The position numbers were made by a program, and so were the translations under genes. From the NCBI GenBank assembly GCA_012026655.1, contig JAAILG010000196.1, forward strand, positions 1 through 64,000: a DNA stretch of 64,000 bases, in the 5' to 3' direction. Source of the DNA: Hydrolagus affinis (lineage: Eukaryota). The notes below the pieces were generated by a model, which did no database searches, was not told the DNA's origin, and saw nothing but the letters and a program-made list of their open reading frames with translations. Of the stretch, positions 253 to 64,000 are shown one piece after another; positions within the stretch are counted from its first letter, which is position 1, and every line of letters begins with the position of its first letter.

Positions 253-565
253 TAATAATACTAATCCTTGCATTTGATATGGCACTTTTCATGTCTTCCA
301 GACAGAAGTTTCAAAGCGCTTCACAGAATGTACTGTAAAGTGAATTGACTGTATATTTGTGGGTGAAACGCGGCAGCCAGTTGCGCACAGCAGTGTCCCC
401 ACAAACAGTCGTGGATTGAAATGACCAATTTTATTATTGTGTTTTTTGGAGTGATTATTATTAGGCGTGTGGAGTAAGGAAACTTACCCAAGGTTTTGCC
501 CTGGATTCGAACACAGGTCCCACGCTTGTAAGGCGAAGGCTCTAACCACTGAGCTACAGGACTCC
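253..565 (-). mobile_element. tRNA-derived SINE (Deu-like core, L2-like tail), near full length
   Basis: Reverse complement has the A box tagctcagtggttag, B box gttcgaatcc, core gtgggacactgctgtgcgcaa.tggctgccgcg and a tail ending gcaagga(tta)n; shared with more than 10 copies in the window. Confidence 0.9.
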
Positions 566-6081: not shown

Positions 6082-6391
6082 ATATAATAATATAATCCTT
6101 ATATTTGATAAAGCGCTATATCAAAGTGCTTCACAGAATGAACTGTAAAGTGAATTGACTGTATATTTGTGGGTGAAACGCGGCAGCCAGTCGCGCACAG
6201 CAGTGTCCCACAAACAGTCATGGATTTAAATGACCAATTTTGTTATTGTGGTTTTTTTTGGGGGGGAGGAATTATTATTAGGCGTGTGGAGTAAGGAAAC
6301 TTGCCCAAGATTTTGCCCTGACCTGCCTGGATTTGAACACAGGTCTCACACTTGTAAGGCGAGTGCTCTAACCACTGAGCTACAGGACTCC
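6082..6391 (-). mobile_element. SINE, near full length
   Basis: Same head, core and tail as the 253-565 copy. Confidence 0.9.
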
Positions 6392-9286: not shown

Positions 9287-9373
9287 ATAAAACAAAAGCA
9301 GAAGTCACTGGGAACACTCAGTGGGTCAGGCAGCATCTATGGATTTCCAGCATCTGCAGTATTTTGCGTTTTT
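9287..9373. mobile_element. Fragment of the Penelope-like inverted-repeat family
   Basis: ctgggaacactcagtgggtcaggcagcatctatgga fused to the opposite-orientation arm tttccagcatctgcagtattttgcgtttt. Confidence 0.6.
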
Positions 9374-27765: not shown

Positions 27766-28111
27766 AGTGAAGTAATTTTTGATACAATGGAGTTAACATC
27801 AAATGTCTCAATATGCATCAACATGCACTGAAAGCTGCTGTCCGATGTAGTGACTGTATTCCAGCACCTTGGCACGTCCTTCTGACGCGAAAGACGCTAA
27901 ACAAATGTAATGTTGTTGTTCTTGGCTAATCTGGCAGCCAATATGCACAGTGAGTTCCCACAGAGACATGAAGTGAAAGACAAATCTACCTTGAAGATTA
28001 TTGGACAGGACACATTCAAAAATTAAAAAAATAAAATCTTGAAATAACCAACTAGAAGACATAATAAACTACACAGCTGAAAATGACACTCTGAATCAAA
28101 TTAATACCCAC

Positions 28112-29109
28112 CTGCCCTTTGCTTTGGTCTCTGATGAGGGAGTATAACTTCTGTGACCATCTGTCTGGTTTCCAGTCCAACTAAACAACGCTTGCTGCCT
28201 GGACATACAAGTTCTTTCGTTAAGTTCAGTACTGCTCACTTCTAGTCCCTTAATGAACACGCCAGTGTTTCCACGCCTTGCAGGTTCACTGAAAGTTCTT
28301 TGACATGATGTGTACTTAAAAGTGTCATTGGGGGAAAGATCAAAGCTCTGAGCCTTCCTTAATACCCTTTTTAAATATTGATTCCGGGAATCCAGTGCAG
28401 AGAAACACCGAGATTGTATCTGAAGAGGGTTAACTGCACCATTGTAGTTGGGTTCTTCGTTGGATATATTGTGCATCAGTCCGTGAGCATCTGGGGTTGA
28501 TGTGTGAATAGAAGCACCAGCTCGCCCTGCTATCATCTGATCAGAGCCCTGAAAACTGGGGGTAGAGCTTCTGCTATTCATAGTTTCAGGTACAAAATCA
28601 TCCTCATTGTTCACGATTCCATAACAACCTGGAGCCTGTGGTGAGTGTTTGTCTTTCTGCCACGCACCACAATGTGACAACCTGCTGCTGAGAGAATACA
28701 TACTGCTGTTTAAGCTAGCATTACTCCTTTCACACTGTAACCTTTGTTCAGTACCATCTGAATGTCTCCTATGGACATTCTCGCTCTTTGTGTTATCTAA
28801 ATCAGAGAGCCTACGGTCTGATGGTAGAGACTTTCTTGTCCTTAGTGCAGTCTCTAACTTCTTCTCAAAGATGAGCTTAGTCTCTTGACATTTGGACCAA
28901 GCAAACTTCCACTGCTTCATCCCCTTCTCACTCTTTAAATCACATGCCAATTCCTTCATTTCCTGAAACTTCGCCTCTGGAATCTCTGGATGTTGATGAT
29001 GATGATTTTCCAGATATCTCACAACTGGCCCACAGCGCTCCGAAGAATTGCAGTCTTCCATGCTGATACAAGCAAGGTGTCTCATCCCTTCGAGGGCCCA
29101 CTCATAAGC
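28112..29109 (-). CDS. PLEKHG4: PLEKHG4 large 998-nt exon
   Basis: ttacag|AYEWALEGMRHLACISMEDC..QWKFAWSKCQETK..SEPARRGNTGVFIKGLEVSSTE..KAKG-S|gtgggt; phase 0 to 2. Confidence 0.92.
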
Positions 29110-29174
29110 CTGTAATAAAGACAAGTCAGATTAGCAACCAAATAGTTAGAGAAATTACTGACACTACAAAACAT

Positions 29175-29452: not shown

Positions 29453-32400
29453 TTTCAGTACAAGCATACTTTATTTGAAAGCATGGAACAGTACTTACTA
29501 TAAGCAAAACAAGTTACTCACTACATACAGTTAGTGATAAACAAGAGTAAATATTTTCTACTACTGGCAACATAGACTTTCTATTTTTAAAACCAATTGT
29601 TTATTTGACAACTATCGTGGTTTATTGTCTAAACGTTTGTTGTGTAATTGTATTAGAGATCAAAGAACAAGAAATCGTATCAGTTGTATTCAGGTGCTTT
29701 CTGCAAAGGTTACAACCTAACATTTAAGACATGTTGAAGCAAGGATGTTTTCTTTACAGCTGTTAATAGTCATTTTTGCTGTTAATAGTCATTCTCGCTC
29801 TTTGTGTTATCTAAATCAGAGAACCTACAGTCTGATGGTAGAGACTTTCTTGTCTTTAGTGCAGTCTCTAACTTCTTCTCAAAGATGAGCTTAGTCATTT
29901 CCACTCGTTTCAAGTACAGTGCTTTGCATATCCTGTAATGATCCAGCCTGCTTGTAAGGTAATGAGAAAATCTTTTGGATTTACCCAACATTCTACCAAC
30001 AGCAAACAGGTTTGTTTTTTCAGGCCAAGGTGACAATGCTTTCTTTTTCTCCAGCAAACAATTCTCAGGACCTCTGTTCCCTGGGACTCAAACATGACCT
30101 CTCCTCTAAAGGGCATGTGTGAAACAACTGTTACATACCAACTATTTGACGCGAGCTGCACTGAGTTACTGAAGTAACTCAATAGGCTATAAGTGAAATG
30201 CTATTCACCATGGTAAGATTGAACAGTATAATAGTTCAGGATAACTATGCTTAACAAAAGGGCTTTCTATCAAATACAATATAACAGTGATGGCAGAGAT
30301 GTGGCAATGAATCTGCACATATTAATATTTAAATATAGACTATACCTTATTACAAATAACACTGGATACATTTCTCGCCATGCTAAAGGAATATCACTCT
30401 TACAGAGTTACATAGTATCATGAGGCACAAAATTCCACAATTTATTCCACACAAACCTCCATCCCTCCTTTACTTCTCACCTAAACCCTTCTAATCGCGA
30501 TTTTCAATTCCTTTATGAAGCAAGCTCTATTATTCTGCACCTACTTTATTTTCATAAATAAATCCAATTTGAAATCTTGCTTCCAGCTCTTACTGGGCAC
30601 TTGGGAAGCAAATAGAATTAAAACAAATATTTTCAGGAGCTGAAAAGTGCCCTGCCACTTTTGTCGAATGCCCAGACTCAATAGTTGGTATGGTCACATC
30701 CAAAGATCCTTAGTAGCTGCCAAGTGAAAACATATCCAAACTGGTAACGGAGTGCACTCCTCATGACAACAGTGTTGAAATGAAGAGCTTTGCACATCTG
30801 GGATTGCAGCCATAAACCCATGTCCCAGCAATTAGTCGTATAGCCACCACTTGTTGGGCCTTCCAAGAATGCACTGATTCACACTATCTGAAATATGTTA
30901 TTTACAGCAGAATAGAATCCCGATTGGTAGCTAGTGCTAATGACATCCGCTCCACTGTTTATGCTCATTTTGCTGATTATTACGGTTCCTTTTGTACTTT
31001 CTAAAGTTATAGAAGAGTTTATATTAACTCATTGTACAACTTCTACTCCAACATATTCTTTCCTAGACATCTCACAATTGTGGAACTCATTAACTTTACC
31101 TTTGTTCTTTAAAATCTTGACTAATTGCTTTGTTTCAATTATTTCATGTTTTTCTTCTAGTCTTTTGAACCTCTGGGCATTAGCCTTCCCTTAGGATTAT
31201 TATATCAATACTGTTCACGTTTTTTGTTTTAAATCTTCACAGAATATTCCTAAACTTAAATAGGTAAAGATTGTGACTTAAAAGCTTTTTTTTAAAAAAA
31301 AAATTCAAACAGCTCTGAATAATTATAGCACCAACGCTAACACCCAAGCAACTAAATCCCACTGTATATTCCTCCACAACCCAATCATAAATTTCCTTAT
31401 TTGTTGTATGCCATCCTCACTCTTGGAATGTCATATATATCCCACTATACATATGCAAGATTGGTGGAATCACAATTCTCAAGAATGCTACATTCACAAC
31501 AAAATAATTTTTTTTGCAGAAAGTGGCAAAGCCCAAGCCATTAACATGTATCCTCTGACTTTTTAAAATGATCATTTGAAAAAAAATTAAGAGCAAGATT
31601 AAGACTATAGACTTCAATAAAGATGGAATGACTATAAAAGATAAATACGTCACAAAAGCCTTTTGCAGAAGTGCAGTTTACGTAATGTGTTGCGCATGAA
31701 TGAACGAATGAAAAGAATAACTGAATAACATTAAAATACTGAATACACTATGACCTATAATTTAACTACTGTTAGGCCAAGAAAACATTAAATTAGTGAA
31801 AATGTTGATTTCGCTCTCAGGTAGGACTAAAACCCAAATTTTGATGGTTGGCTGTGAAATCAAAATGAAAGACAACATGGAATTGGATCTCTACAGCTAT
31901 CACAGAAAACATTGTTTCGGCTTGGTGAAAATGTTGTTTTTTTAAAAGTTTGTTGCTGGTTGAAACAAACACACCTATCAGAATCACCACCCGAATCACT
32001 GAAAATTAACATGAAGTTGGTCAGCCTTTGATAATCATTATTACCATTTCACAACACAAGCAAATTAAACTAAACAAGTATCTTTTCTTCCAGAGCAAAT
32101 TCATACATGCTAAAAGTTTGTATATTCATTGGACAAAAGGAAATCTATGATGTTAATTCTGTGTATAAAATTACGATGTGAAGACTGGAAAAAGCAAATC
32201 AATGTTTTAATCAAACAAGATGCTAAGGTAAGTAAATTGTAGCATAGCATATTAGCTTATAGCCCCCAAATAATAATATTGAAGTAAAGGGATTTACAAC
32301 TATATAAAGCACATTTTGAAACATGCTTTGAGCTGATTTTGAATTTGGAAGTACAGTATTTAAAAACAGCATATATTTTCATTCATGGATACTAACTTTA

Positions 32401-50407: not shown

Positions 50408-52795
50408 AGTTTGAGCCGTATAATCCTAGGTTATTTTAACTCTATTAATTTACAACCAAATATTCTGATAGTTTGCTCCTTGATGGTTAAAAACAGCCCA
50501 CCTACACAATGAACTGACTGTCCTTTCCCTCATGCTCAGTTTTGCATAGTTTAGTGTCTCATGCATTGCACAGTGTATGAGTCACATGTAAAACTTTCAA
50601 TTCAGCTGAGACTGAAGTGCTCAATTGTAGCAACCTGCCCTGGAAAGCCTCCCAAAGGTTAATAAAAGACAGAACTCTGGATACACCAACAACAGTAACC
50701 TGAGAAAGAAGAAACCTAATAAATTCAAAAGAATACTCCATCATTCTGCAGTGAAATCTAGTAATGTGGTTTTATAATTGTACACCTCGCCTTTAATATA
50801 TTTTTTGAACATATCTTTCAACTGACTGGCAGTTTACCCTTTACAATCTGACCTAAACAGCTGTTGGTATCATTTCCTTCTCCACAGATACTAGTCCAGA
50901 CATCTGGGCCATGGTCATATTTCTGCTGTGAAACCACTTCTCAGACCATATAGATTAAAGAAAGTTCAACAGCTGCATCAGCCATGTCGCAGCTCACAAT
51001 GGCCTCTCAGTTTGCCTTGATGTTTGCCTTGGAAGACCATTTGCAGGAAATGTTTGTGAGCATGTCTAGTGAAACGTCAAATCAGTCAAATAGCATTGGA
51101 AACCAATTGCTGCTTTAGAAAAAAACAAAAATAACACTGCACTTCACATAATACTAAAAATTGATACCTTAGAACTAAGCCTGGCAAATCTAAAAACATC
51201 CGCTTTGCTGCCTAAACTCAACAACAACACCCAAATTACATTTATAGAGTGCCTTTCATGTCGGGAGGACGTCCCAAGGTGCTAAACTCAGATCAATAAG
51301 GTAACATGCTGGCCAACAGAAGATAATTAATTTTTCAAATACTTCAAAAAGTGAAGTAGTGCCATCCCTTAAATGAAATTCACTTCTTGGCTTTTTGTCG
51401 GTTATTGCTATGTGCAAATTGGCTGCTGTGTTTGTCTAGAAAATACACAGTACTGTATTACATTCTACAGCAAATTCTGTGAAGCACTTTGAGACAGCTC
51501 GAAGATATAGTAAGGTTTTACATCAAATGCAAGGATTGTTATTTTAAATTTTAAATGAAATAAAACTGAATAAAACCAATATTTTACAACAAACTAGTAA
51601 TCTGCAATGAGATAAAATCATAAGTGTAAAATCCTGGCCTGTTCTGGAAAATAGGTGTGTAAGATTATTGACATATAATCATCTAGCAGTCGTGTTACTT
51701 AATAGAAATATCCACTATATGGTAATCAAAATAATCATACATTTACTAAAAAATACTTTACTCATTTGCAGATTAAATTGTAAACAAGTATTCAAACTTG
51801 GCCAATGACTGCTTTGTCATCTGAGTTGAATCCAGTTTAGCACTAAAAACACATCTTATTTATTTTTTCCCTTCCTTTTTACAGCTCTCTTATGAACCTA
51901 TTTGGAATCCCATCACATGCCTGTGATTCGCTGCACCTCGAGTTGTCTTGCATGGTAGTTGGTTTGAAACTAAACTAGCCTCACTGCATATAGAGGTAGG
52001 TAAATTGTAGCATCATCCAGCTACACTATAAAATTAGTGTCAGTGGAGAGAAAATGATATGGATCTAACTTGACATCAACAACTTACACTTAGATGCTCT
52101 TTCAGAGTGCTAGATTTCTTTGTATGGACAATGAAAAAATGTGCAATTCTCAGGCCATACATTTTAACATATGTACAAAAAGGGGATTTGCAGTCTTTAA
52201 ATACCAACATTTTTGATAGATATTATGGTCGCCTCCTTGGGCTCTTAAAAATGTTTTTCATCTCAAGCCCAACCCTTTGTCTTTCAAGCCTATCTGCCAG
52301 CATTTTCTGGCAAGCTACTTTGCCTTAATTTATCACATGGATCGACCCTTATGAGTAATCTATTACTTTATGAACAATTTACTGTCTTTGTAACCTAAGT
52401 GCTCAGATTCTTCAAAATATTAACTAATGGCGCCTGTGTGTGACAGGTTACTCCAGATTTTAACGTGGCTTCCTGTTTGGAATAAAAAGTGGCACTAAAT
52501 CATCAAACGAGAGAGCACTGCAACACAATAGGGTTATTGAGATTTTAGTGACAGATTTGTAATCTGATCAGATGCCATTGTACAATGGTTAAAAGCACAA
52601 ATGTCCAGAACTAGGGATTAATGCAGAACCATTGTGGTGAGAGAATTTTAAAATGATAGAATTTTTCTGAAGTTCAGAAAGAAACATTAAACCTGAGTCA
52701 AGCCTTTTTTTGTAAAAACATGTCAAATGAATTGAGTGAATATGACCATTTACAATCTGCTAAAATAGGGGCTAAGATAAACGTACTATTAAAAT

Positions 52796-52992
52796 TAAAA
52801 TGCAAATACTGCGGATGCTGGAAATCTGAAACTAAAACAGAAATTGCTGGGAACACTCAGCAGATCAGGCAGCATCTACGGAGAAAGGCAAAGTGAGTCA
52901 ACGCTTTGGATCCACATCCTTTTGTCAGAACTCAGTTGACTCACTTTTCTCTCCCATGTGATAAATTAAGAAATCGCTCCTGTTTTTGTTTT
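52796..52992. mobile_element. Penelope-like inverted-repeat element with decayed hammerhead motif
   Basis: aatactgcggatgctggaaatctgaa..actcagcagatcaggcagcatc..aagtgagtcaac / gttgactcactttt inverted arms. Confidence 0.7.
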
Positions 52993-53974: not shown

Positions 53975-54263
53975 TGAAAATCGGAAACATAAAGAGAAGT
54001 CGCTGGGAACACTCAGCAGGTCAGGCAGCATTTGGGAGAAAGGAAATTGAGTCAATGTTTCGGGTCCGTGATCCTTCGTCAGAACTGGGACATGTTGGGA
54101 GGGAGAGGCTTTTAATGACTAACGGAGCGGGGAAGCAGGGCCAGGAAGACAAGGGAGAAAATGTGGTAGACTCACTTTCCTTTCTCCATAGATGCTGCCT
54201 GACCTGCTGAGTGATTTCTGTTTTTGTTTCAGACTTCCAGCATCTGCTGTATTTTGCGTTTTG
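53975..54263. mobile_element. Penelope-like inverted-repeat element with hammerhead motif on - strand
   Basis: Arms 54011-54053 and 54169-54212 are near-perfect reverse complements; CTGACGA..GAAA core at 54082-54058. Confidence 0.75.
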
Positions 54264-60404: not shown

Positions 60405-60521
60405 CATACGAAAGCAAACCCAGTCTTGGTGACAGTAGGGGAAGGTTCCATCAAATTCCAATGGAAGCTGATTGGTTTCTATGTGTTTATGTAGAGATTT
60501 CAGTGATGTAAGAATTTCAAA
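60405..60521 (-). CDS. PLEKHG4: PLEKHG4 exon (end of Sec14-like region)
   Basis: gcacag|FEILTSLKSLHKHIETNQLPLEFDGTFPYCHQDWVCFRM|gtgagt. Confidence 0.92.
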
Positions 60522-61574
60522 CTGTGCAAAGACAATAAAAATCATATAAAAGTACCAAAACAATCAGGGTATTTCAGAAGCGTAACAGTGCAAAAGACTG
60601 ACAATCAAGTGTTTTCAAAATGGTTGAGGGGATGTTTCTGATTTAATATCCACGACAGCAGAATAAAATGTTCCAACACAAACACAGTTCAAACCCAATC
60701 GTAATTGCCATCTCGGAAGCTAACAAAAGATAACAAGCAAGCCAAACAAAACAGAATCTAGAGGTTACTTGAGGGAGAAGCCATTTTACACTCTGATTTT
60801 ATAGTTTCATTAACAGCCTAAAACCAATTTAATGGAAATAAGCACAAATGCACAATTTTTAAAAAATTATCTGATCCTGAGCTCACTCTCCCCTAACTGT
60901 GCAGATGCTGAAAGCATTACTATTAGATTTAATGAAGTTTAGGTTCATAAAACATTCATTTTATAAATGGTAACAATATACTACCAATCATTTTATTTAC
61001 CCTAAGTTATGTTCACCTAAATGCCCAGTGAAGCCGTCTAAACCATATTTATCAAATGGCATGTGGCCTGTTTCCTTGACTGCTGACCCGCTTCTGTGCC
61101 TTGTTAAACTCTTGTTATATTCACTGCAACCAAATGTGGTAATAAAAAGAGGTCAGTGTGAGACCTAAAACATTTGGTCTGATGCTATGGGACATTCACA
61201 CGAGTGATACGCACAATGTTCTTCAGGCAATCAAACCATGAACAAGAAGTGCAGACTTTGGGAAATAACTATAGTACCCTTTTGTTTTAATGGGACTAGC
61301 ACAATTTTAAAACCACAAAGATGTATGTGGTTTAAAATATTTACTTGCTCCAAATATAATTATGTTGCAGATTGAAAATGGAATAAATAAACCTGGAGTT
61401 CTTTCAAAGGAATATTTATTTGATTAAAATAAACAAAATTGTGCTTAATATAATAAAGGTAGTATTACCATATTATGTATTAGTATTATGCATCCAGAGT
61501 AACGTTTTTATAATTGATCTTCAAAGATGCCACTAAAAGTTTTGCACTAAATTTAAAAACAATCCTTTGCTTTT

Positions 61575-61680
61575 TCAGTTCTGACGATGGGTCGTGGAAC
61601 CGAAACGTTGACTCACTTTTCCTTTCTCCATAAAGCTGCCTGACCTGCTGAGTGTTCCCAGCGATTTCTATTTTTGTTTC
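61575..61680 (+). mobile_element. Penelope-like element arm carrying the hammerhead motif
   Basis: gactcacttttcctttctccataaagctgcctgacctgctgagtgttcccagcgatttctatttttgtttc, same family as the 52.8 and 54.0 kb copies. Confidence 0.75.
61577..61614 (+). ncRNA. Minimal type I hammerhead ribozyme motif (Penelope-associated type)
   Basis: AGTT-CTGACGA-T-GGGTC-GTG-GAACC-GAAA-C-GTT-GACT: intact CUGANGA and GAAA core, helix II 4 of 5 bp, helix I AGUU/GACU, palindromic AACGUU in place of helix III. Confidence 0.6.
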
Positions 61681-62636
61681 TATGCTTTTACTGTTGGACT
61701 TTTAATTTTGATTTATATTAATGGAAATGAAGATGGTTCACAGTTGGCAGTATAGTAATATGGAGCAGAAAGCCAGTTTATACTGCCATGCTATTCTGCT
61801 TTCAAAATTATCCCAAAATAGAACAATCAGCTGCACTGACGTAATCTAAACATGATACAAGATATTTTCAAGAAATTAATATATGGAAGAATGTGGGCCC
61901 CAGCTCAGCCCTGAGGAGACTCTGTTTACTTCCACTCTTCTCCCCTGGGAGGATAGTCACTAATTGATTATTAGAAATCTGATGAGCACTGATTCGAACT
62001 CTCACGAGGTGGACTGCTTGTGAACATCTTGGTGAGTAGCATTATTCAGTATAACATGTAAACAAACTCCTTGCAATTCTTTTTATTACTATTATCCTCA
62101 TGCCCAGTTAGGACACACATCTATCTCCATTGAACAGTGATTCCACAGTTGGAAGTATGAAGCTTCAGCTGCAGCTGTTAACCTCTTTGAGTACTCCTCA
62201 AGGTAGATACCGAGCTTTGGATATACAAGTGTGAGTTCATGAACTCTGAAGTCAGCTGTTCCAGCAGCTGTCATTCCAAACTTCAGAGTTTCCTATTCAA
62301 TAGCCATCTGCCTTCAGCATTACGGGAAGACCTTCACAGAACAGCTTGTAATGTGCCAGTCACTCTGGCGTTCTTGAGTCCAAATCCAATGCCATGTACT
62401 AGGTTTACTCAACACCAACTGCTTAATCCAGGCCTCATGTGAAGGTTCTTGGCAAAGAGACATGACCACTTGGAAGCCAGAGTGCTGAGCAACAGGACAG
62501 TGCAAGCTGAATCGCTTCTTCCCTGCAGCTGCTTCTTATTTTAAAAAAAACACAACTTGGTCCTGGACTTTGCAAATGTGCTGAAGTAAACTCTTCCATT
62601 GCCTGGCAGCTTGGAACTATGAAGAACTGTTTCGAC

Positions 62637-63001
62637 ATAATAATAATAATACTAATACTAATAATAATAATAATCCTTGCATTTGATATAGCGCTTTCCA
62701 CATCTTATCAACGTCTCAAAGCGCTTCACAGAATATACTGTAAAGTGAATTGACTGTATACATTTGTGGGCGAATCGCGGCAGCCAATTGCGCACAGCAG
62801 TGTTCCACACACAGTCGTGGATTGAAATGACCAATTTTATTATTGTGTTTTTTTTGGAGGGATTATTATTAGGCGTGTGGAGTAAGGAAACTTGCCCAAG
62901 GTTTCGCCCTGACCTGCCTGGATTCGAACTAAGGTCTCCCCAGCTTGGATTCCCCAGCTTGCAAGATAAGTGCTCTAACCACTGGGCCACAGGAGCTCCA
63001 C
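62637..63001 (-). mobile_element. SINE, full length (head-duplication subfamily)
   Basis: Reverse complement closely matches 27424-27765; long (TTA)n tail at 62637-62674. Confidence 0.92.
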
Positions 63002-64000
63002 CTCTTATAAGCCTCTTAACTGATTAAAAGAGACGTCTTGCATTAATTTTCTACACGACAAATCAAAATGATAAACGTTCTTGTGATGTAAGTTGCTTTG
63101 AAAAAACAAAAATCCATAAATAAACTTTAAAGCTGTCAGGCAACTGGCAGGAGTAAAATGGGTAAGTGTGTGTATTCAAGTAAAACCTTTTACAGGGGCT
63201 TTAAGTAACCCGTTACTCTAATTCCTCATTCAACAAAGAGAGAGAGGGAAAATGCAGGTCATTCTACAGCAAAATTCAAAGCTTTTGTGCCAACTTTTAT
63301 CAACAGTGAAAAGAAAAAGTCTGCTGTATTGAGCAGAATCATAGCCAAAGCAAAGGTCACTTTAGTATCTACATTCATGAGTAACGAATAATAGAAACCT
63401 AGGAGTGACTAATCTTATCAAGGGGTGAAAATGATCCCATCCATTGTAAAAGTATCACAACTCTTTCTTAAATAACATGATTCTCAAGGTTTACAACCTC
63501 ACAATGTGGTATTCATCAATATGTATATAAAAATTTATACAAAGATGGTGAGGAAGGGGGAAATGGTCCTAATGTTGAAGGATTGGGGACACAGGGGAAA
63601 TTATTTAAAAAAATGAATGGAGTATTGGATCATTTAAGGTATTATATGAGGTAAACAAGGGCAATCTCACAACATTACAAGTTCAACCCAGTTGGCATTG
63701 TCCATAGTTTACAAACTGGCAGAAAAACAATCTCTACATTCAGAAAAAGAACCATCGCCTTTGTTTTCCTGCATTTAATAAATTGGCTTTTACCGTACCT
63801 GCAGATTATCTGAAAGTATGCGGCTACAAGCAGGGGCACCTTCTGTTTCTAACACTGATACTTATATTTAGTTATAAGTGCTAATCGATGACAGGTTCCC
63901 TATTTATACCTTAAGAGTGCCGCAATCACAGTCAAGGTTATCATTTACGAGAAATCTCACTTTCAAATATTTCAAATAGTGTCACCAGATGTAATTTATA

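Follow-up and report, generated by a model that had tools for sequence, protein, structure and literature searches.

Gene Context of the Insertion

The window, i.e., the whole 64,000-nt stretch of Hydrolagus affinis contig JAAILG010000196.1 that was analyzed, carries PLEKHG4 (puratrophin-1) sequences on its minus strand. An open reading frame at 28096-29130 (-) represents this gene, with its best match in Callorhinchus (90%), indicating a chimaera-like host. Approximately 700 bp upstream of this real exon, a partial duplicate of the large PLEKHG4 exon was observed at 29791-29907 (-) (P0001 residues 918-956, 74%). The feature under study is a 105-bp insertion flanked by 10-bp target-site duplications (TSD) and containing a hammerhead-like motif (Table 1). 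Since the PLEKHG4 exons on either side both lie on the minus strand, the motif is intronic and antisense to the gene, which agrees with the first-pass annotation of this DNA. An empty site, in which the flanks are joined without the insertion, was found in a single contig, which belongs to run X1 of a related organism. In contigs of run X2, each flank runs into the repeat, consistent with presence of the insertion there.

Table 1. Coordinates of the motif, the insertion and the surrounding host gene within the window.
Feature	Position	Strand	Remarks
PLEKHG4 (puratrophin-1) exon downstream of the host intron	60408-60524	-	tblastn with P0003, 82% identity
PLEKHG4 host intron	60525-64000	-	Continues to the next exon (contig 64023-64121)
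Left TSD copy, 10 bp	61565-61574	+	9/10 bases match the right copy
Insertion of 105 bp: solo pseudo-LTR stub, truncated on the 5' side, from a Neptune-like Penelope element	61575-61679	+	Ends at the shorter of two family 3' ends
Helix I, 5' strand	61577-61580	+	Also the commonest start of short family copies
CUGANGA box (CUGACGA)	61581-61587	+	Intact
Unpaired base between position 9 and helix II	61588	+	U here; A in 49/54 family copies
Helix II	61589-61601	+	Family: 5 bp, 3-nt loop; window copy: central pair broken (G-A, 61591/61599)
GAAA box	61602-61605	+	
Palindrome AACGUU	61604-61609	+	Helix III possible only between two motifs
Helix I, 3' strand	61610-61613	+	
Remainder of the pseudo-LTR stub	61614-61679	+	Without the optional ~33-nt tail of many other copies
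Right TSD copy	61680-61689	+	

Neither a tandem repeat at the motif site nor a tandem array in the window was detected; the copy is solitary and bears a TSD. Further members of the same Penelope family are located elsewhere in the window. An inverted pair occupies 53975-54170 (-) and 54166-54262 (+), the former copy being sense to PLEKHG4, with kept core boxes and mutated helix II and palindrome. Another copy, also sense to PLEKHG4 and in the same intron, lies at 52794-52932 (-), about 1.15 kb from the copy at 53975-54170, and has two mutated core bases. Judged from their sequences, pairing of these two copies in their present state would not give an active ribozyme. A short family fragment without the hammerhead was observed at 9290-9343 (-). 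Moreover, tRNA-like heads are present at 496-563 (-) and 6318-6389 (-) (Rfam tRNA, 33 and 40 bits), likely representing a tRNA-derived SINE, and a similar tRNA-like element with an (ATA)n end is located at about 62640-63000, approximately 1 kb from the motif.

Anatomy of the Hammerhead Motif

The minimal hammerhead written out in the first-pass annotation was confirmed at 61577-61613 on the plus strand; in the following, +1 denotes the A at 61577. All 11 scored hammerhead core bases are intact in the window copy, including U16.1 and H17, and the self-complementary AACGUU is present in the place of helix III, as had been described. Helix I forms all four pairs (4/4), with 96% of cells paired across 14 copies. 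The single G-U pair ascribed to this 4-bp helix exists as well; as U-G, it is the normal state of the family (13 of 14 aligned copies) rather than damage. A G10.1-C11.1 pair preceded on its 5' side by an unpaired base was also found, with five of five helix II pairs in the family and four of five in the window copy. The earlier description of the core as intact holds for both boxes and all core bases but is too strong for this copy as a whole: the one mismatch seen in helix II proved to be the G-A at 61591/61599, i.e., a private substitution breaking this helix (the family has C mid-helix in 45/57 copies). The second private substitution of the motif affects the unpaired base between position 9 and helix II. 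Based on the numbering and the NUH rule, the cut of the window motif is presumed to fall between 61609 and 61610.

A pattern consisting of the two boxes and their spacing matched once in the window versus a mean of 0.01 in 100 shuffles, of which one contained a match. Using the full minimal-hammerhead descriptor, the window site was the sole match, and none occurred in 60 simulated 64-kb controls.

A Large Repeat Family with Two Subfamilies

That the motif belongs to a repeat family, as previously proposed, was borne out by genome-wide copy searches. Screening of the species' own genome (1.11 Gb) with positions 61550-61700 returned 2,014 first-look candidates, of which the 40 scored showed 87-95% identity over approximately 105 bp. 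The intact-motif pattern (both boxes, perfect helix II) gave 601 exact matches versus none in the reversed control, and at least 4,415 versus 30 were obtained with helix II left free. In an unselected sample of 679.5 kb, comprising three large contigs and the contig of the window, 25 family fragments were counted, scaling to roughly 40,000 fragments for the genome. Two subfamilies are distinguished at the top of helix II, with either C-G and a GUG loop or U-G and a GUA loop; the window copy is a member of the former. Patterns with longer helix II spacers uncovered no hammerhead families (81 matches versus 94 in the control). Shorter spacers yielded 124 versus 48 matches, and the 100 listed were mostly indel variants of the window family, with no other family among them.

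The proposed comparison of core and flank conservation revealed no clear difference. Among 60 flank-recruited copies, mismatches were more frequent in the core overall (42/601, 7.0%, vs. 324/5,719, 5.7%, in the flanks) and less frequent there at non-CpG sites (15/491, 3.1%, vs. 296/5,608, 5.3%), with CpG-site mismatch near 25% in core and flanks alike and a helix II mismatch of 12.5%. Covariation in helix II, likewise suggested as a check, was not seen: none of nine pairs exhibited a two-sided change in 14 hand-picked sequences, and the covariation score of these 14 copies, in which just two close subfamilies are represented, was matched by 474 of 500 shuffles. The only helix II difference between the subfamilies is one-sided, from C-G to U-G. 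Since dead copies of one family are expected to decay neutrally, such conservation and covariation tests bear little on the ancestral element, and their outcome is in keeping with one or two masters whose copies decayed neutrally.

Linkage to an RT/GIY-YIG Open Reading Frame

Walking along the copies substantiated the supposition that the repeat derives from a Penelope element with a linked GIY-YIG/RT ORF. When sequence upstream of the motif was used for recruitment, the copies obtained contained an ORF end approximately 250 nt before it. In translation, this end shows a GIY-YIG core having two Cys and two downstream His residues (CCHH), as well as a CX4CxxC linker. The linker was recognized in the translations of L037, L058 and L101, and the DKG motif in those of L099 and L104. 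Pfam GIY-YIG matched at E<=0.1 in three of four and three of eight locus fragments (best E = 1e-4, one above the gathering score), and a weak RVT_1 match was obtained in one of eight decayed fragments (E = 0.007). The RT and the DKG motif lie farther upstream than the GIY-YIG domain, and the 25 homologues of the RT fragment featured RVT_1, PF28514, PF26215 and, in some, GIY-YIG.

The pseudo-LTR (pLTR) motif is also repeated before the ORF start. In L136, L132, L148, L150 and L141, motif and tail continue into the ORF N-terminus, and likeness to homologue N-termini makes a start codon near +175 likely. Among seven extended loci, L273 and L274 represent partial pLTR-ORF-pLTR arrangements with the motif, L278 is a pLTR-ORF-pLTR copy with a shortened ORF, L275 and L277 retain the 3' pLTR only, L279 is a partial tandem, and no motif was seen in L276. 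Long ORF-bearing copies mostly belong to the sister subfamily; the subfamily of the window is linked to the ORF end by the recruited copies, and L021 and L176 connect it with the ORF start. Every ORF seen is broken by stops or frameshifts. The partial tandems L279 (886-2113), L176 and L021 contain motif, tail and ORF start and, 277-1121 nt farther on, another motif.

Partial tandems, inverted 5' copies, an optional tail and TSD were found in the family and are hallmarks of endonuclease-bearing (EN+) Penelope-like elements (PLEs). A CX2-5CxxC linker together with a C-terminal EN of the CCHH type is described as defining Neptune and Nematis (PMC8557442), and only Neptune and Poseidon are reported for vertebrates in a recent survey (10.64898/2026.07.22.740005); on these motifs, the family therefore likely belongs to the Neptune clade.

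Copy Ends and the Template RNA

Copies recruited by flanking sequence from about +32 on numbered 30, or 28 after removal of the query locus and one duplicate. Of these, 19 start at -4 to +6 and two at +29 to +39 (p about 1e-15 versus uniform). In the unselected sample without the window copy, six of 24 start at -4 to +6 and two of 24 near the cut (p = 0.002), and for unrecruited secondary matches the corresponding counts were 19 and two of 78, with 23 of 78 extending beyond -31. No genome-wide excess of starts at the cut (+34) was obtained for the window subfamily, where 19 were counted, the neighbouring positions +36 and +38 having 13 and 21 (p = 0.77), starts masked by T-microhomology being missed. 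By eye, about four of the 19 are plain 5' ends, and the remainder are inversion junctions or internal deletions. At the opposite side, 3' ends cluster at +103 to +109 (9/25) and +133 to +140 (10/25) in the unselected fragments, about 33 nt apart. Furthermore, ten loci (L009, L064, L066, L157, L161, L179, L180, L206, L248, L267) contain inverted pairs arranged back to back, each arm beginning 1-11 nt from the first base of the motif, again marking this base as a fixed end.

With 19 of 28 copies beginning at the motif's first bases, the stubs were likely copied from uncut RNA starting there, and an RNA with its 5' end at the first base of the motif is the simplest reading. The CCAGTTC at the motif start fits the initiator consensus, YYANWYY. 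PLEs often have an intron in the 5' UTR. The family has AG at +1/+2 and splice-acceptor-like stretches (pyrimidine tract, AG) at +57 (61618-61633 in the window) and at +107, just past the end of the window copy; no splice donor was identified. Capture of a host exon via the AG at +1/+2 was considered as cause of the shared start and is disfavoured, as TSDs abut the start in the window copy and, by eye, in several others. Internal promoters are described for PLEs (PMC2377424). In Drosophila virilis, transcription starts 46 nt before a 75-nt intron, the end of which meets helix I (PMC2377424; PMC4209133); a transcription start at this position therefore has two alternatives, an RT stop or a splice acceptor at +1/+2. 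A literature search retrieved no paper on PLE copies beginning at the first base of the motif.

Predicted Activity of the Window Copy

Calculated helix II energy amounted to +0.9 kcal/mol for the window copy and to -5.8 kcal/mol for a natural copy with intact motif; for the dimer-active fold, the two values were -1.5 and -14.7 kcal/mol. Folding of the isolated 38-mer produced no hammerhead fold (z = +0.37), and monomer folds had z values of about 0 to +1.3. Within the unselected sample, the core is kept in six of 12 whole-motif copies, and core, both helices and palindrome are kept in three of 12; the window copy falls into the former group only. No same-strand (+) partner with a whole motif was found besides the window copy in the 84 kb examined. 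On these models, the window copy is predicted to be inactive, residual activity being possible in view of its 11 intact core bases. Catalytic competence, even of the intact family motif, is assumed by analogy from its likeness to hammerheads.

Comparison with Known Systems

Minimal hammerheads have been described in the pLTRs of metazoan PLEs, including fish Neptune, where solo copies run into the thousands and dimers show little activity (Cervera and De la Pena 2014, PMC4209133; PMC6765202; PMC6155905), and are reported for fish Xena, Poseidon and Neptune elements (PMC4209133). The motif presented here shares with them the 4-bp helix I, both boxes, the unpaired base between positions 9 and 10.1, the G10.1-C11.1 pair, the palindrome at 15.2-16.2 instead of helix III and the thousands of dispersed solo copies. 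Going by the features listed in that study, all structural ones are present here except helix II length, which is 5 bp in contrast to 7-8 bp in Schistosoma families; the window copy additionally differs by its broken helix II. Cartilaginous fishes are not among the hosts named in the available text of PMC4209133, and searches for literature on hammerheads combined with shark and Penelope, or with Callorhinchus, returned no relevant paper. The lineage may thus be unreported; the kind has been known since 2014.

Similarities to Neptune EN+ PLEs (Craig et al. 2021, PMC8557442) comprise a single ORF with RT, DKG, CX4CxxC linker and C-terminal GIY-YIG of the CCHH type, as well as partial tandems, inverted 5' copies, an optional 30-40-bp tail and variable TSD. 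Unlike the elements described there, no (TA)n preference is apparent in the junctions listed here, which are mostly AT-rich and not microsatellite. In vitro work on PAc, a Poseidon element of Anolis, reported two internal sites at which the RT starts, uncut RNA as main template and ribozyme cutting only with the element protein (Frangieh et al. 2024, PMC11167929). PAc and the present family have in common a hammerhead at the pLTR-ORF junction, two 3' ends corresponding to two such RT start sites and no signal of ends at the cut site. However, the PAc ORF starts at stem II, whereas the likely start codon here lies about 175 nt after the first base of the motif, beyond the tail, and Poseidon lacks the Zn-finger linker present in this family. 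Animal non-LTR retrozymes (Li et al. 2026, 10.64898/2026.07.22.740005) resemble the short copies in being non-coding, carrying a type I hammerhead and being related to PLE pLTRs, and one chondrichthyan case is reported. In contrast to the window copy, which is solitary and flanked by TSD, they are defined as tandem repeats in which two or more successive units each bear a complete hammerhead.

Origin of the Motif and Alternative Explanations

Based on the results obtained, the motif is interpreted as a minimal type I hammerhead of a PLE pseudo-LTR, likely of the Neptune clade, surviving in a PLEKHG4 intron as an insertion of 105 bp that is predicted to be inactive; a probability of roughly 0.88 is assigned to this reading. 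In the corresponding scenario, the RT/endonuclease of the element would have nicked AT-rich DNA, and reverse transcription would have been initiated within the RNA of the element, about +105 from the first base of the motif, where the shorter of its two internal start sites lies. The RT would have passed the uncut hammerhead and stopped at the first bases of the motif, most likely the 5' end of the RNA. In an active parent, cleavage may, according to the literature, occur only as a dimer via the AACGUU palindrome or with the help of the element protein. The window copy would have undergone neutral decay since insertion.

A chance resemblance to the hammerhead within an ordinary repeat could explain why Rfam reported no hammerhead family, neither in the whole window at the gathering threshold nor at E<=10 in 61000-62200, and why a stable fold and covariation are absent. 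Such an origin is scarcely credible, given that the agreement takes in all 11 core bases and both helices as well as the extra unpaired base, G10.1-C11.1 and the palindrome, at a place where PLEs reportedly carry such hammerheads (PMC4209133), and that the descriptor found no match in the 60 controls. At the other extreme, the window copy could be a functional or domesticated ribozyme acting on an antisense transcript of PLEKHG4. Its intact core bases, helix I and palindrome would suit this role, the core being kept in only half of the unselected whole-motif copies; the same proportion renders its retention unremarkable. Moreover, family-derived poly(A) reads were recovered from two RNA runs of another organism (3,798 and 3,166 reads). 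These reads lie on the repeat in both directions, with almost none on unique flanks and no pile-up of ends in the two runs, and are therefore uninformative for the window locus. Function of this copy is very improbable considering the broken helix II, an active dimer fold approximately 13 kcal/mol less stable than that of the intact copy, the relative without insertion at the matching site, the orientation opposing the host pre-mRNA and the missing nearby same-strand partner.

The short stubs might also constitute a self-standing non-autonomous family of SINE- or retrozyme-like nature, with short master loci being transcribed and copied. Copy lengths are mostly about 105 or 138 bp and the 5' start is sharply shared, short copies greatly outnumber ORF-bearing ones (2,014 first-look candidates for the motif region versus 595 and 107 for ORF regions), and non-autonomous retrozymes derived from PLEs are described (10.64898/2026.07.22.740005). 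However, in both subfamilies the short copies equal the pLTR of ORF-bearing copies base for base except for decay, and they grade into longer 5' extensions. Furthermore, the window contains no tandem array, same-strand pairs are few among the fetched loci and spaced 277-1652 nt apart, and a full-length RNA beginning at this point would produce the shared start just as well. An independent family of this type is accordingly regarded as unlikely, and origin as a pLTR stub of the ORF-bearing element is preferred.

Implications for Penelope-Like Elements

The locus itself is of little significance, representing one decayed copy among thousands, and the family adds a further case to the known link between PLEs and minimal hammerheads. 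The sharp copy start at the first base of the motif, together with the missing signal at the cut site, provides genomic support for the in vitro result that uncut RNA serves as template (PMC11167929). Beyond this, we tentatively suggest, at somewhat under even odds, that the element RNA starts at the first base of the hammerhead, that the tens of thousands of 105- and 138-bp stubs are strong-stop products of uncut RNA, copied from either internal RT start site up to the cap, and that the ribozyme, rather than producing the template, is a rarely fired switch that would remove the first 33 nt and the cap. If this were true, genomic stubs would map the transcription start of PLEs, and cleavage and retrotransposition would be alternative fates of the element RNA.
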